In this document: positions 41,368-63,450 of the stretch, one piece after another | How positions within the stretch are numbered: the stretch's first letter is position 1 | Layout: each line of letters starts with the position of its first letter | DNA from: Undibacterium sp. | GTDB taxonomy: Bacteria; Pseudomonadota; Gammaproteobacteria; Burkholderiales; Burkholderiaceae_D | Reading direction: 5' to 3' | NCBI GenBank assembly: GCA_041913845.1 | Contig: JAYSEN010000010.1 | Location: 25,707 to 89,706 of the forward strand | Length of the DNA: 64,000 bases | The notes under the pieces: model-generated | The model's database searches: none | Seen by the model: the letters and a program-made list of their open reading frames with translations, nothing else | What the model was told of the DNA's origin: nothing | Position numbers and translations under genes: made by a program

Positions 41368-41934
41368 ATGATAGACGTGTCATTGGCATTCATTGCGCAA
41401 ATTCTGGATCGCTATTTGCGTTTGCAACTGGGTTTAGACCACACTTTGGTGGTGCTGAATAGTCTGGTTAACGCAGACGGCTCGACGCCGGAAAAAAATC
41501 AAAATAAAGTCGTGATTACGCTCATCAATCTGGAGTACGAATCGAATCGCCAGTTTTATGGTGCTAATCTGGCCTTTGCCCAACAACAAGTCAGAGTTAA
41601 TCCGCCCGTGGTATTTAATCTCGACCTGATTATTTCGGCGCAGTTTGATGATTACGCAGAATCCTTAAAATTACTCAGCCTGATCGCTGGCTTTTTTCAA
41701 GAAAATCCCGGCTTGTCGCGGAATAGTTTTCCGACGATGCCAGCGAGTCTGCCGAATTTAAGCGTGGAAATAGAAAGTTCCAATTCAAGTAAAACGCATA
41801 ATCTCTGGACTGCGCTAGGCGCGAAATACCTGCCTTCGATTATGTATAAGGTGCGGCAAGTACCAATACAAGGTAAGCAAATCCAGCTCGCGAATCAAGC
41901 TATCCGTGATACCAGCAGTGGGGTGGAGTTATGA
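41368..41934 (+). CDS. CIS cap/tail terminator protein (DUF4255, Afp16/Pvc16-like)
   Basis: NKVVITLINLEYE, NPPVVFNLDLIISA, ESLKLLSLIAGFFQ and NLWTALGAKYLPSIMYKVR. Start moved to ATG 41368. Confidence 0.88.
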   Translation: MIDVSLAFIAQILDRYLRLQLGLDHTLVVLNSLVNADGSTPEKNQNKVVITLINLEYESNRQFYGANLAFAQQQVRVNPPVVFNLDLIISAQFDDYAESLKLLSLIAGFFQENPGLSRNSFPTMPASLPNLSVEIESSNSSKTHNLWTALGAKYLPSIMYKVRQVPIQGKQIQLANQAIRDTSSGVEL

Positions 41935-42761
41935 CGCAAATCATCACCACTTGCCAGTTTCGTCACCCCTATTATCCGCAGGGTTTGTTGCAAGGCTACG
42001 AATTAGTGGCCGAGCCTGAAACTGCCGCGTTGATGCAAGCTTATGGCTTGTTTTGGCGTCATCAAGCTGAGGGATTTACTTTGTATGGCCAGCATGCTGA
42101 TCTGGCTGGTTTGCTCAGCTATTTGCAGGATCGTTACGAGACGCAGCAATTGTGCTGGAAATTAAGCGGTGATAGCGCGCATTTTTTTGAAATTAGTGAA
42201 TTGACGGATAGCTCATTAGCACATTTTTCTTTTCAGTTACGCAGCGCCGCGACATCACTCACCGATACTCGTTCAGCGGACTGGTTAAGCCTGCAAATGC
42301 AGCAGCTCGCAACTGGAAATTATCAGACGGCGATAGCGACCTTGTGCTGTCGCTTCGCTGATTTAGCGCGCGCCTTTACTCATCAGGAGAAATTTGTCTA
42401 CGAATTTCAGGCACGGAAATTGCACTGGGTGTATTTGCTGATTAATCGCAGTCAACAAGTATTGCATGAGCCAAAAATTGTTTTAAACGATGCAGTTAGT
42501 TTCTCCGGACCTGAGTTTGTGCAATTGGAAAATGGTGAAGCGGCACTGCGCTTTAGTGCTTTAGCCGATGCTTATCCCTTGCGACAGATTGAACAACCAC
42601 AATTCGATTTGCAAGTCGAAGCGAGCGTGGTGATCGATGGTCAGCGTCAAAAGCAAATTTTACTGAAGGGCTTGCCTACGCCTCAGGCGGGTAAGCTGAG
42701 TATCCGGCGTTATGCCAACAGTAATCAGGTGTTGAGTAGTGAATTGTATGTGTATATCTAA
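41931..42761 (+). CDS. CIS accessory protein, probable cap adaptor (Alg16B-like by position)
   Basis: Overlaps the cap gene stop and has an FRHPYY N-terminus. The position matches the AlgoCIS cap adaptor; this assignment is inference. Confidence 0.6.
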   Translation: MTQIITTCQFRHPYYPQGLLQGYELVAEPETAALMQAYGLFWRHQAEGFTLYGQHADLAGLLSYLQDRYETQQLCWKLSGDSAHFFEISELTDSSLAHFSFQLRSAATSLTDTRSADWLSLQMQQLATGNYQTAIATLCCRFADLARAFTHQEKFVYEFQARKLHWVYLLINRSQQVLHEPKIVLNDAVSFSGPEFVQLENGEAALRFSALADAYPLRQIEQPQFDLQVEASVVIDGQRQKQILLKGLPTPQAGKLSIRRYANSNQVLSSELYVYI

Positions 42762-42892
42762 GTCTGTCGTTGCTGTCTGGCAGGCAGGTGTTGCCGTGTT
42801 TGATTGATTAACCCAACCATTCATGCCCGTGGCGAGTTTCATCATCGTCAGTATCTGGGTGTGAGTCGCACTGAAGAGGACGAAACCCAACC

Positions 42893-61689: not shown

Positions 61690-62544
61690 ATGACGACCGT
61701 AGCGACAGCCAGCTATTTAGTAACGGGTATTGCTGATCAAAAGAAAGCCGAAATCGATTTGCTGGGCGAATTAGTGAATCGCGCGCAGTATCAAGTCAAT
61801 CAGCAACAAACTATCGTTAATTCTTTAAAAGCCAAAGCCGATCAATTCAATGGTTTTTTGAATCAGGCGAATCAAAATAAAAACACGGCCTTAGCCAATC
61901 TGGATCAGGTCACGGATGCGTTTAATCAGGTTGGTAATTTGCATCAGGCAACCATCAAAGCACAAGCCCAGACCGATAAAGCAACGACGGCAGTCTGCGT
62001 TGGCTCAAAAGGGGTGGCCGAACTAATCAATAAGTTGATTTTTTCGGTGGAAATCATCAATAAAGTCGCACAATTAATTACCCGGCAAAAAGCCATTAAC
62101 CCGCTGATTCCCACCGAATTAATCAGTTTCATGACCAAGGCAGGAACCGATGCCAATAATGCAATAGCCCTGACCTTAACTGCTTTGCAAAGTGCGTATG
62201 CTGCTGAAGCCAGTTTGCTCGGCGCGCAAGGCTTGAATGAACTGGCGTTCGGGCAGGTTAGAGACTTGTCTGAGCGTATGACTAAAGGTTGGGATGTGCA
62301 TTGCAATACGCTGATTTCGCCCACGCCGATATTGGGACGCGCAAGTAATAGTGATGGCATCGTCGCGTTATTAAATCGCGCCTATCAAATCGCGGTGGAT
62401 ACTTATAATCAGGCTTTGTGGAATAGCAATAGCGTCAACAAGCAATTGAGTTTTGCTGAAGCGCAGCTGGCGCGCGCCTCGACCCGTTTGAATTCGTATC
62501 AATCGGGTCTGGCCGCTGCCACAGCAGCAGCTTATGCGGCTTGA
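61690..62544 (+). CDS. CIS-associated all-helical protein
   Basis: 284 aa with coiled-coil composition either side of a central KAINPLIP turn. AAGGAG RBS. Confidence 0.8.
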   Translation: MTTVATASYLVTGIADQKKAEIDLLGELVNRAQYQVNQQQTIVNSLKAKADQFNGFLNQANQNKNTALANLDQVTDAFNQVGNLHQATIKAQAQTDKATTAVCVGSKGVAELINKLIFSVEIINKVAQLITRQKAINPLIPTELISFMTKAGTDANNAIALTLTALQSAYAAEASLLGAQGLNELAFGQVRDLSERMTKGWDVHCNTLISPTPILGRASNSDGIVALLNRAYQIAVDTYNQALWNSNSVNKQLSFAEAQLARASTRLNSYQSGLAAATAAAYAA

Positions 62545-62613
62545 TTGCAAGCTGATTTTGCGACGGAACAGGGCGATCGCTAAGCTGCTACAGATCGCCC
62601 ATCAGGAGCCATT

Positions 62614-63450
62614 ATGTCAGAGTATGAGTTTGCTAAAGCGTGTTATTTGCGTACGGGCTGGATACCCATGCCCGAATTGCAGCGCAGTGTCGCGGTTGGT
62701 GATGTGCTGCAAATTCAGCGTCAGCGGGTGTTGAATTTAGTCAGCTTGCCGGCGATTCATTTAGCCCAGGCGGCGCAAATTAGTCCGGCACTGGGACTCT
62801 CAATCTATGATTTTCAATTAAACCACGGCGTCAGTGTTAAAAGCTTTCAGCGTTGCAGTTACGACCAGGATGATCGGCAATGCTTTAGTCGCTATGAACT
62901 CGATTTTGCCTGGCCCGGTAGTTATCTGTTTCAATGCCAGGGCGTGCAAGCGCAGTATTTACTGAACTGGCATCAATTGCGCGATGATTTTTTGCTTAAG
63001 CTTAGCCAATTGCATTTTCATTTTCGTGATGCAATAGTGGTCACGGCAGTCGCGCGTGCAGAAAACTGGAATCTGTGTATAGCGGCAAATGGCGGTGCCA
63101 GTTTGCATTACAGCGCCAGCCATCCAGATCAAGACCTGTTTGCCTCGCTGGCATGTCCGGAACGGCAATTTGAAGCTAGTCGTGGCCTTGCTATTCATCA
63201 GAATTCGACGCAGTGCGCCGCTCATTTTATTCAGGCAAAACGGATGATACTGAGTGAAGCTGCGGCCGATAAAATGCTGCAAGGCTTAGTCGAAAAGCAA
63301 GCTGGAATGAGTGCGGTGGAGCGGGCAAATTGGTTGCGTGCAGACTGGATTAACTTACTTAAAAATCCCGAGTTATCGATCAATACCTGCAAAGATGTTT
63401 TTTCCTGGCGGGACTTGAATCTTGATGATCTTGCCCGGCTCAACCACTAA
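62614..63450 (+). CDS. Putative gasdermin-like pore-forming-fold protein
   Basis: The ORF itself is clear (AGGAG RBS). The gasdermin call rests on motif order: GWIPMP...VAVGDVL, F..PGSYLF...YLLNWHQL, IVVTAVARAENWNLCIA and FIQAKRM, followed by a ~60-aa C-terminal extension. Confidence 0.55.
   Translation: MSEYEFAKACYLRTGWIPMPELQRSVAVGDVLQIQRQRVLNLVSLPAIHLAQAAQISPALGLSIYDFQLNHGVSVKSFQRCSYDQDDRQCFSRYELDFAWPGSYLFQCQGVQAQYLLNWHQLRDDFLLKLSQLHFHFRDAIVVTAVARAENWNLCIAANGGASLHYSASHPDQDLFASLACPERQFEASRGLAIHQNSTQCAAHFIQAKRMILSEAAADKMLQGLVEKQAGMSAVERANWLRADWINLLKNPELSINTCKDVFSWRDLNLDDLARLNH

Follow-up and report, generated by a model that had tools for sequence, protein, structure and literature searches.

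A conserved three-gene module ending in a predicted gasdermin-fold gene in a single-sheath contractile injection system locus of Undibacterium sp.

Extracellular contractile injection systems (eCIS) are freed by lysis of the producer, yet some of their loci lack a lysis cassette (PMC10598620), and an AAA ATPase and DUF4157 are counted among their core domains (PMC8213781). Several related contractile injection systems (CIS) have been tied to membrane association or to death of the producer (PMC13266070; for the thylakoid system, tCIS, PMC8894136; for Streptomyces, PMC10066040). Among them, SalCIS is located at the inner membrane, its release was not seen, and its cluster carries SalCis13, a trimeric fibre-like protein, together with the integral membrane protein SalCis20, which has a hydrolase domain, and, in every operon, a SalCgo2-type HEXXH effector (PMC13266070). 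Here we describe a locus at positions 41368–63450 of a stretch of 64,000 nucleotides (nt) from Undibacterium sp., an uncultured bacterium of wastewater and activated sludge (contig JAYSEN010000010.1; the whole stretch is called the window below). The locus is an unbroken series of open reading frames (ORFs) on the + strand, with overlapping stop and start codons at several junctions. It comprises 15 co-oriented ORFs, or 16 if a conserved upstream ORF is included, and 11 of the 15 gave specific CIS domain or PDB matches, which places its identity as a CIS far above chance. From sequence comparison, its last gene, for a protein with a predicted gasdermin fold, belongs to the core of a CIS lineage that is widespread and of which the window holds a member devoid of ATPase and cargo.

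The genes that follow the tape measure, hereafter the trio, are these:

59900–61666, + strand: fibre-like protein at the Cis13 position, 588 amino acids (aa), with a conserved coiled-coil N-terminal two thirds and a variable C-terminal third
61690–62544, + strand: all-helical partner protein, 284 aa, of the family that supplies the second gene after the tape measure, with an Ala-rich C-terminal tail
62614–63450, + strand: gasdermin-fold protein, 278 aa, named after its AlphaFold2 model and the Foldseek matches of that model in the PDB

For a survey of the trio, one genome per species was scanned with the 588-aa family (97 homologues), yielding 58 loci, and profile searches were run on all their ORFs. 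The loci come from Proteobacteria (for example Massilia, Rheinheimera, Pseudomonas, Agarilytica, Pseudoalteromonas, Vibrio, Dickeya, Phytobacter and Kosakonia) and from, among others, Candidatus Acidoferrum, Tenacibaculum, Kordia, Flavobacterium, Mucilaginibacter and Crocinitomix. The gene of the 588-aa family directly follows the tape measure in 58 of 58 loci, that of the 284-aa family is the second gene after the tape measure in every related locus, and the recurring order is Cis12, tape measure, 588-aa family, 284-aa family, gasdermin-fold family, AAA ATPase and one or more DUF4157 proteins. Ten loci lacked the gasdermin-fold gene, four of them cut by a contig end; it was thus found in 48 of the 54 assessable loci, spread over Proteobacteria, Bacteroidota and Acidobacteriota. 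The six true absences are from two Dickeya, Phytobacter, Kosakonia, Vibrio and a Pseudomonas or Mucilaginibacter metagenome-assembled genome (MAG). The coupling to the ATPase gene is tight: in 45 loci the ATPase ORF starts at a point from 50 nt before to 16 nt after the gasdermin-fold gene ends, and the two genes usually overlap by 8 or 11 nt. Further downstream, a 91-aa ORF is sometimes found between the ATPase gene and the DUF4157 (eCIS_core) genes, and the DUF4157 proteins, at least one per locus, differ in number, size and domains. In one more distant locus (L070) the trio is kept and the ATPase gene lies ahead of it. The locus of an uncultured Dokdonia sp. (L058) is the only other genome locus without an AAA ATPase gene after the gasdermin-fold gene; its tape measure match spans 176 aa, and this locus may be degenerate.

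Because the order of the trio is fixed across three phyla while the effectors vary, comparison of these loci identifies the trio as a core module of the CIS lineage and not as cargo. The original prediction had taken it for an oddity of this locus or a likely payload, a view that does not survive the finding of the same three genes in the same order in 48 of 54 loci; strain-specific cargo is rejected on the same grounds. That the gasdermin-fold protein is itself a delivered payload or translocon, making pores in target cells, was the second option of that prediction. Its gene is the last of the operon, the usual place of eCIS toxins (PMC8213781), it adjoins the loader ATPase gene in relatives, and the window strain encodes no other cargo. 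Against this, its order and sequence are conserved across the three phyla, unlike the variable DUF4157 proteins downstream, which are the real effectors; it has neither a DUF4157 domain nor a disordered N-terminal leader, its model beginning with a confident helix; and the lineage of the window has retained it despite the loss of the loader. We consider delivery into targets very unlikely.

The 278-aa protein has five word-level homologues, and an exhaustive profile search placed 79 clusters of its family among 1.84 billion representatives. No match was obtained in Pfam, NCBIfam, PADLOC or PHROG, nor in the PDB by phmmer or profile. An AlphaFold model built from six close homologues was unusable (predicted local distance difference test, pLDDT, of 32) and was dropped; AlphaFold2 with a 62-sequence alignment reached a pLDDT of 88.7 and a predicted template modelling score (pTM) of 0.86. 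This model consists of an N-terminal helix, a multi-stranded sheet broken by one long helix, and a helical C-terminus of about 60 residues (215–278) that carries a conserved FSW…LDD motif and ends in a short strand. On this strand sits the nearly invariant F263, and G29-D30, near the N-terminal strand, are invariant, an arrangement that in the model parallels the aromatic C-terminal latch of bacterial gasdermins (bGSDMs) (10.1101/2021.06.07.447441).

In a Foldseek search of the PDB, the top 14 matches of the model were all gasdermins (best E 1.9e-5, probability 0.8–1.0), and the matches below them had a probability of at most 0.3. The gasdermins retrieved span bacterial, fungal and animal proteins: the Vitiosangium pore and slinky oligomer, the inactive forms from Bradyrhizobium, Runella and Vitiosangium, GSDME, the Trichoplax gasdermin, the GSDMA3 pore and RCD-1. 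The same search gave no fold match to AlgoCIS (7aeb), tCIS (7b5h), SalCIS (9rce), PVC (6j0n) or Afp (6rao), assemblies that, judging by their dates, are presumably within the library, and a Foldseek search of viral structures gave no match either. The PADLOC model for bGSDMs was weakly matched (E 0.042) by two of 62 family members and not by the window protein. The gasdermin resemblance is therefore supported as a fold-level lead from a predicted model, not as proof, and membership of the bGSDM family is not established. Of the earlier description of this gene as gasdermin-like, what holds is the resemblance of the predicted fold, with gasdermins as the exclusive credible matches. A literature search for gasdermins together with contractile injection systems, most subscription journals being outside its coverage, found no operon link between them.

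A conserved protease partner was looked for as a companion of the gasdermin-fold gene and rejected, since a CHAT protease occurs in one locus only and an S41 peptidase beside one distant member. The first, a CHAT-domain (caspase-like) protease, lies at 16732–18711 of L070, 6 kb downstream of the gasdermin-fold gene and after a sigma-70 gene. Two distant members of the 278-aa family were found outside CIS loci (L067 700–2844 and L068 801–1820); one is directly upstream of a Peptidase_S41 gene and the other stands alone among unrelated genes. The former arrangement is reminiscent of the pairing of canonical gasdermins with proteases (10.1101/2021.06.07.447441), and these two members may form a bridge to the canonical protease-activated gasdermins.

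The first protein of the trio is well conserved over its N-terminal 320 residues and has a further conserved block at residues 361–400, whereas its C-terminal third shows low identity and large insertions, with an indel hot spot after residue 418 and relatives of up to 814 aa. Its profile gave coiled-coil matches only in the PDB, an H-lectin match at E 0.007 being below threshold and left unused; the ratio of nonsynonymous to synonymous polymorphism (pN/pS) of its gene, in comparison with the sister strain (L063), is 0.08. Homologues occur in Dickeya, Phytobacter and Kosakonia. Given this conservation pattern, which is that of tail fibres, and a Cis13 gene position as in SalCIS and tCIS, we reject the earlier statement that the locus has no fibre: with its coiled-coil N-terminus, conserved first two thirds and indel-rich last third, the 588-aa protein is probably fibre-like, with a constant attachment region and shaft and a variable tip. 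The second protein, of 284 aa, is all-helical and has a conserved central motif; Pfam and PHROG held no match for it, and the PDB search yielded nothing beyond coiled-coil noise. Its family has an invariant Ala-rich C-terminal tail, SLQAGLAAAxAAA[YF]A[AS], across three phyla (62490–62541 in the window), which, by its sequence, looks like a docking peptide. The enterobacterial and Vibrio versions are longer by a coiled-coil insert of about 100 aa; the idea that this extra length, in loci without the gasdermin-fold gene, is a replacement domain was rejected, as it is this insert.

These features also fit an ordinary released eCIS, in which the trio would be a fibre plus fibre-assembly or decoration proteins, and the gasdermin-like fold a membrane-inactive beta-sheet scaffold. 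The trio is fixed between the tape measure and the ATPase, the place of Afp13-type fibres in other eCIS; its first gene combines a conserved N-terminus with a variable C-terminus; its conservation is as strict as that of structural genes; and the TM-scores to gasdermins are low. On the other side, the gasdermin-fold protein has no fold match to a solved CIS or phage component and no PHROG match, gasdermins are its only credible matches (with the probabilities given above), and the family has some members away from CIS loci, of which one adjoins a protease. We judge this explanation unlikely, though it deserves to be kept in view.

The remaining genes of the locus, with the ORF that precedes it, are the following:

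39843–40910, + strand: conserved upstream ORF, 355 aa; no Pfam, PADLOC or PHROG match
41368–41934, + strand: cap or tail terminator (Cis16a, Afp16-like), 188 aa; Pfam Pvc16_N, E 1.5e-23
41931–42761, + strand: cap-adaptor-like protein at the Cis16b position, 276 aa, fast evolving; gene order as in SalCIS (PMC13266070)
42893–44470, + strand: single contractile sheath protein (Cis2), 525 aa; Pfam Phage_sheath_1C and Phage_sheath_1
44557–45021, + strand: inner tube protein (Cis1), 154 aa; Pfam Phage_T4_gp19, E 6.7e-45
45011–45505, + strand: second gp19-type tube protein (Cis5-like), 164 aa; Pfam Phage_T4_gp19, E 1.4e-38
45530–45706, + strand: spike plug (Cis6/Alg6-like), 58 aa; Pfam DUF5908, E 2.3e-12
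45715–46374, + strand: tube initiator or baseplate hub adaptor (Cis7), 219 aa; Pfam CIS_tube, E 3e-41
46377–48161, + strand: VgrG-like spike (Cis8), 594 aa, without a toxin extension; Pfam Phage_base_V, E 1.8e-18, and Phage_GPD
48163–48468, + strand: PAAR spike tip (Cis10), 101 aa; Pfam PAAR_motif, E 6.1e-22
48461–48901, + strand: gp25-like sheath initiator (Cis9), 146 aa; Pfam GPW_gp25, E 2.8e-16
48898–52800, + strand: baseplate wedge or spike-cage protein (Cis11, gp6-like), 1300 aa; PDB matches, no Pfam match
52787–55387, + strand: baseplate wedge protein (Cis12, gp6/gp7-like), 866 aa; PDB matches, no Pfam match
55377–59831, + strand: tape measure (Cis14), 1484 aa, in an ORF open from 55323; Pfam CIS_TMP, E 9.7e-80, residues 1095–1500

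The sheath protein matched SalCis2 best in the PDB (9r9h, E 4.9e-120), followed by AlgoCIS (7adz, 7.7e-89) and tCIS (7b5h, 4.7e-81), with the Pvc and Afp sheaths well behind. On this basis the locus is assigned, by sequence, to the single-sheath clade-Ib type, the group of AlgoCIS, the metamorphosis-associated contractile structure (MAC), type VI secretion system (T6SS) subtype iv (T6SSiv), tCIS and SalCIS. The original prediction had the class right: it had proposed a single-sheath system of AlgoCIS/MAC type with a complete structural core, a cap and a plug-like ORF, and one sheath gene, Pfam or PDB matches for the core genes, the Pvc16_N match of the cap and the DUF5908 match of the 58-aa ORF, all on the + strand, agree with it on every count. 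The two baseplate proteins without Pfam matches were recognised in the PDB, Cis11 through tCIS All3317 (E 1.6e-35), a P. luminescens Pvc11-like protein (8.4e-24), Alg11 (4.2e-22) and SalCis11 (3.3e-18), and Cis12 through tCIS All3315 (2.2e-48), Alg12 (4.2e-38), SalCis12 (1.8e-32) and also Afp12 and Pvc12.

For the 276-aa protein, there was no Pfam, NCBIfam or PHROG match, and three homologues were found. A small profile built from them had SalCis16b as its best PDB match, at a weak E of 0.02 and over residues 3–54 against 5–57; in SalCIS, it is with its N-terminus that SalCis16b closes the sheath (PMC13266070). The earlier label of adaptor-like is therefore borne out in gene position, which is that of SalCis16b, and much less in sequence, where the match is confined to some 50 N-terminal residues. 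Three gene assignments are backed by other loci: the closest relative (L066) has a cap orthologue of 188 aa, 73% identical, in agreement with a start at 41368, and a DUF5908 gene of 58 aa at the equivalent position, and the start of the tape measure at 55377 coincides with the gene-call start in L001. The first ~1,090 residues of the tape measure (55377–58600) had no family match, CIS_TMP covering the C-terminal ~400 only; in relatives its length ranges from ~1,100 to 1,670 aa, implying very long particles.

Cis11 also contains the one hydrophobic element of the locus:

51088–51249, + strand: insert in Cis11, residues 731–784, a cationic amphipathic helix followed by a near-transmembrane hydrophobic helix

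Residues 752–781, the second half of this 54-residue insert, are the sole stretch in the locus above the classical hydropathy threshold, with a Kyte-Doolittle 19-mer maximum of 2.24, and no other segment exceeds 1.6. The insert has a net charge of +7 and a hydrophobic moment of up to 0.60, in accordance with the membrane-helix-like insert that had been predicted for the baseplate. It directly follows a motif kept in all Cis11 relatives (GFG..LYP..V..SL.NAQ.LI). The N- and C-terminal parts of Cis11 align with SalCis11, Pvc11, tCIS Cis11 and Alg11, leaving ~480 middle residues unaligned; as the alignment with SalCis11 extends up to about residue 412 and those with tCIS Cis11 and Alg11 begin at about residue 896, sequence order would place the insert in the cage region around the spike. 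At the same site, K-rich amphipathic helices of varied lengths occur in Massilia, Pseudomonas, a Rhodocyclaceae MAG and Candidatus Acidoferrum, the counterpart in L066 is less hydrophobic, and the site is empty in Rheinheimera, Flavobacteriia and enterobacteria. Such K-rich helices resemble antimicrobial peptides and are typical of peripheral membrane binding; that of the window, from its hydropathy, may be hydrophobic enough for membrane insertion.

The insert bears on a role of the trio as a membrane anchor, or trans-envelope device, that involves no lysis: trio and Cis11 helices would tether the baseplate, perhaps as a ring, and the machine would fire outwards on contact, like T6SS subtype iv or SalCIS. 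In its favour, the nearest sheath is that of SalCIS, which sits at the inner membrane with no release seen (PMC13266070), genes at or near the Cis13 position encode the membrane anchors of SalCIS, tCIS and Streptomyces (PMC13266070, PMC8894136, PMC12237407), the Aureispira T6SSiv has a C6 trans-envelope complex whose composition is not known (10.1101/2024.01.29.577165), the cage protein bears cationic amphipathic helices and the trio is conserved like a structural part. It is harder to reconcile with the trio proteins themselves, in none of which hydropathy reveals a segment of transmembrane grade or an N-terminus resembling a signal peptide; in particular, the 588-aa protein lacks a C-terminal transmembrane helix of the type of tCIS Cis13, its 19-mer maximum being 1.43 and in the N-terminal part. 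Additionally, membrane insertion by known gasdermins kills, a variable fibre tip fits recognition of outside targets better than anchoring inside, and many relatives that keep the trio lack the Cis11 insert. We regard an anchor without lysis as unlikely, if a contender.

The reading that we favour, tentatively and at somewhat less than even confidence, is that of a membrane-docked machine accompanied by a latent pore-former that opens the membrane of the producer for release or cell death. Particles would assemble in the cytoplasm, and six Cis11 helices together with the fibre module would hold the baseplate to the cytoplasmic membrane, on its anionic inner side. The gasdermin-fold protein would be kept latent by its helical C-terminal region of ~60 residues with the conserved aromatic motif; upon a trigger, it would oligomerise and perforate the producer's own inner membrane, acting as the missing, holin-like lysis or cell-death factor, and loaded machines would be released or exposed. 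The reading fits a branch of CIS that is recurrently linked to membrane association or producer death. As had been stated before, the locus showed no gene of holin or endolysin type. In the window strain, which has neither loader nor effector, the outcome would be mainly puncture or self-lysis, or else the strain would rely on genes elsewhere in the genome.

Several observations weigh against this reading. The gasdermin assignment comes from a local 3Di alignment (Foldseek) of a predicted model, the TM-scores are only 0.25–0.44 with a large root-mean-square deviation, and the window protein gives no gasdermin signal at the sequence level in Pfam, PADLOC, profile or PDB searches. It starts with MSEYEFAKAC, without a Cys at positions 3–4, and C10 is conserved only among closer relatives. 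An adjoining protease accompanies bGSDM genes in 43 of 50 known cases; no conserved protease neighbour exists in the locus or its relatives, and the canonical activation route is thus missing. The gasdermin-fold gene is missing from the enterobacterial and Vibrio relatives, and its tight coupling to the Cis15 gene could equally reflect a role in loading or assembly. Moreover, a pore of gasdermin type does not by itself open a way through peptidoglycan or the outer membrane, and domain searches revealed no hydrolase encoded in the locus.

A variant that we hold to be quite unlikely is that the gasdermin-fold protein is not a killer but a co-opted, ring-forming portal in the producer's inner membrane, which opens on a trigger at the baseplate and on which the machine docks or through which it fires; its activator would perhaps be the neighbouring Cis15 unfoldase and not a protease. 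Gasdermin pores measure 18–40 nm (PMC10153256) and CIS are 18 nm wide (PMC13266070), so that such a portal is conceivable because the pores are wide enough. If true, the protein would serve the whole CIS branch as the counterpart of the T6SS membrane complex.

The really unusual trait of the window, as far as sequence searches go, is the lack of a Cis15 ATPase and of a DUF4157 effector. A jackhmmer search of the 64 kb found neither an AAA ATPase (Afp15/Cis15) nor a DUF4157/HEXXH protein, in line with the earlier remark that there is no ATPase gene, and the 4 kb that follow the window, covered by L001, have no AAA ATPase or DUF4157 gene either. The window strain would therefore have machine and trio with no recognisable loader or cargo in cis. 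In three relatives of 53–72% identity (L002, L064 and L065), the locus likewise ends at the gasdermin-fold gene and is followed by photolyase and DPRP genes; since it is kept in relatives down to 53% identity, the ATPase-less layout appears old and stable. The region immediately downstream is strain-variable:

63430–64000, no strand assigned: start of the strain-variable segment; darcynin, SDR and cyclic nucleotide monophosphate (cNMP)-binding genes in the window, a DUF4157 cassette in L063

The sister strain L063 is 98.3% identical and gap-free over 10.8 kb and is collinear with the window up to position 63429, seven codons ahead of the stop of the gasdermin-fold gene, so that the last seven residues of the protein differ between the two. 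Beyond this point L063 has ~3.2 kb (10817–14032) with a 731-aa DUF4157 (eCIS_core) protein on the − strand, which contains a faint nuclease domain, and a 169-aa ORF, which may be an immunity gene; both strains rejoin at a DPRP-like gene, the window-type segment corresponding to L001 10817–13260. One metatranscriptome contig carries the junction of L063 type.

The loss of ATPase and effector could be taken to mean a decaying remnant that makes no working particles: two eCIS core domains (PMC8213781) are absent from 64 kb, and the effector cassette has been replaced. Nevertheless, there are no frameshifts or stops in 22 kb and all ORFs are intact; pN/pS in comparison with L063 is 0.08–0.28 for Cis12, the tape measure and the trio; relatives keep the ATPase-less layout; and the same DNA was found in 20 DNA runs from 12 studies of activated sludge, wastewater, biofilm and groundwater. 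There are also transcript traces. Short contigs scattered across the locus, trio included, occur in wastewater metatranscriptome assemblies, and in a run that may be RNA, of a strain ~92% identical, a 4.3-kb contig (depth 25) spans the genes from the adaptor through Cis7; these traces are weak evidence of expression, as the contigs may reflect DNA carry-over. By its sequence the locus is intact and without signs of decay, and the degeneracy that the original prediction had named as a possible refutation was not found. A pseudogenised remnant was rejected on the intact ORFs, the pN/pS values and the conserved order of the trio, and a non-working relic appears highly improbable.

In L066 (44–92% protein identity), the locus is found at the corresponding chromosomal site, where the class IV aminotransferase gene again precedes it, and the window contains no tRNA, Rfam family or flanking repeats that would support a mobile island; the locus thus looks vertically inherited rather than mobile. 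A comparison of positions 41368–52800 with L066 9438–20832 showed a very uneven divergence within the operon: the first tube protein is 100% identical, the sheath 92% and PAAR 91%, against 44% for the cap-adaptor-like gene, 45% for Cis11 and 60% for the plug, which suggests recombination or fast evolution of surface and cage parts. L066 also has a homologue of the 355-aa upstream ORF (340 aa, 52% identity) at the same position ahead of the cap gene, and this ORF is possibly a regulator or accessory factor of the locus. Promoter and terminator scans performed no better than on shuffled sequences. A perfect 15-bp stem with a 14-nt loop at 63596–63640, between the gasdermin-fold gene and a convergent darcynin gene, is probably a bidirectional terminator. 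Elsewhere in the window, two adjacent zinc-ribbon proteins of 377 and 292 aa (20891–22980, − strand), with no further functional assignment, are encoded with a TonB-dependent receptor gene on one side and the pyruvate dehydrogenase operon on the other.

A conserved operon gene with a predicted gasdermin fold is a candidate for the factor behind release or envelope crossing in Afp/AlgoCIS-type systems that have no holin or endolysin, and likewise a candidate explanation for the ties of CIS to producer cell death. It would also extend gasdermin-like roles in bacteria beyond protease-coupled phage defence, to a divergent branch wired to a nanomachine and an AAA ATPase gene. The trio, which is simple to score, marks a CIS lineage found in Proteobacteria, Bacteroidota and Acidobacteriota; Massilia, Rheinheimera, Pseudoalteromonas, Kordia and Tenacibaculum belong to it, can be cultured and are amenable to genetic work. 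The variant in the window, without loader or effector, offers a natural experiment on what the core machine and the trio do alone.

Among described systems, SalCIS of Salmonella enterica subsp. salamae comes closest. Its sheath is the nearest solved relative, and the two have in common a single sheath gene, a cap gene followed by a gene that in the window is a candidate cap adaptor, a plug of Cis6 type, a Cis11 and a Cis12 of enlarged size, a gene for a fibre-like protein behind the tape measure and features hinting at contact with the inner membrane. They differ in that the window lacks a SalCis20-type integral membrane hydrolase, the SalCis15 ATPase and the HEXXH effector SalCgo2; indeed, its locus proteins other than Cis11 have no transmembrane-grade segment by hydropathy, and domain searches gave no hydrolase domain. 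Conversely, a gasdermin-fold gene is not reported for SalCIS, and the enterobacterial relatives that we found do not have it. The original claim of an undescribed subtype is accordingly narrowed: a related inner-membrane-associated cluster was published in 2026 (PMC13266070), which also lends a published parallel to the general idea of a membrane-associated or self-directed mode, but the gasdermin-fold component is unmentioned there, and SalCis20 and SalCgo2 are absent here.

With AlgoCIS of Algoriphagus machipongonensis, a free eCIS released into the medium (PMC8894135), the locus has in common the clade Ib layout of one sheath, a putative cap adaptor, an Alg6-type plug, a probable cage protein of Alg11 type and an Alg12 wedge. 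AlgoCIS, however, has an Ig-like fibre (Alg19), an ATPase and the cargo Cgo1/2 (PMC8894135), no hydrophobic insert is reported for Alg11, and no search linked its cluster to the trio. The thylakoid-anchored tCIS of Anabaena provides the nearest solved relatives of Cis11 and Cis12, attaches to the membrane through additions to baseplate or fibre proteins, and is tied to the formation of ghost cells by the producer (PMC8894136). It is anchored by Cis13, through a transmembrane helix, and by Cis12, through an amphipathic one, whereas the hydrophobic element of the window lies in Cis11, and the window shows no sign of thylakoids or of a cyanobacterial origin.

The gasdermin-fold protein resembles bGSDMs (10.1101/2021.06.07.447441; PMC10153256) in its length of ~280 aa and in its predicted architecture, an N-terminal helix and a core of twisted beta-sheet against which the C-terminal segment folds back. 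It departs from them in having neither the Cys at position 3–4 that is the palmitoylation site of bGSDMs nor an adjoining protease, in a helical C-terminus (~60 aa) that is longer than their short inhibitory C-terminal peptide, upon whose removal bGSDMs form pores, and in the setting of its relatives, which are in a CIS operon beside an AAA ATPase gene and not in a defence island. Finally, the lysis cassettes of R-type tailocins (PMC10598620) are comparable in the role proposed here, that of a membrane-perforating protein which is encoded with the particle genes and frees the particles. Those cassettes have a small multi-pass holin, an endolysin and a spanin, none of them seen in the locus; the candidate for their role would instead be a soluble, latent beta-pore former.

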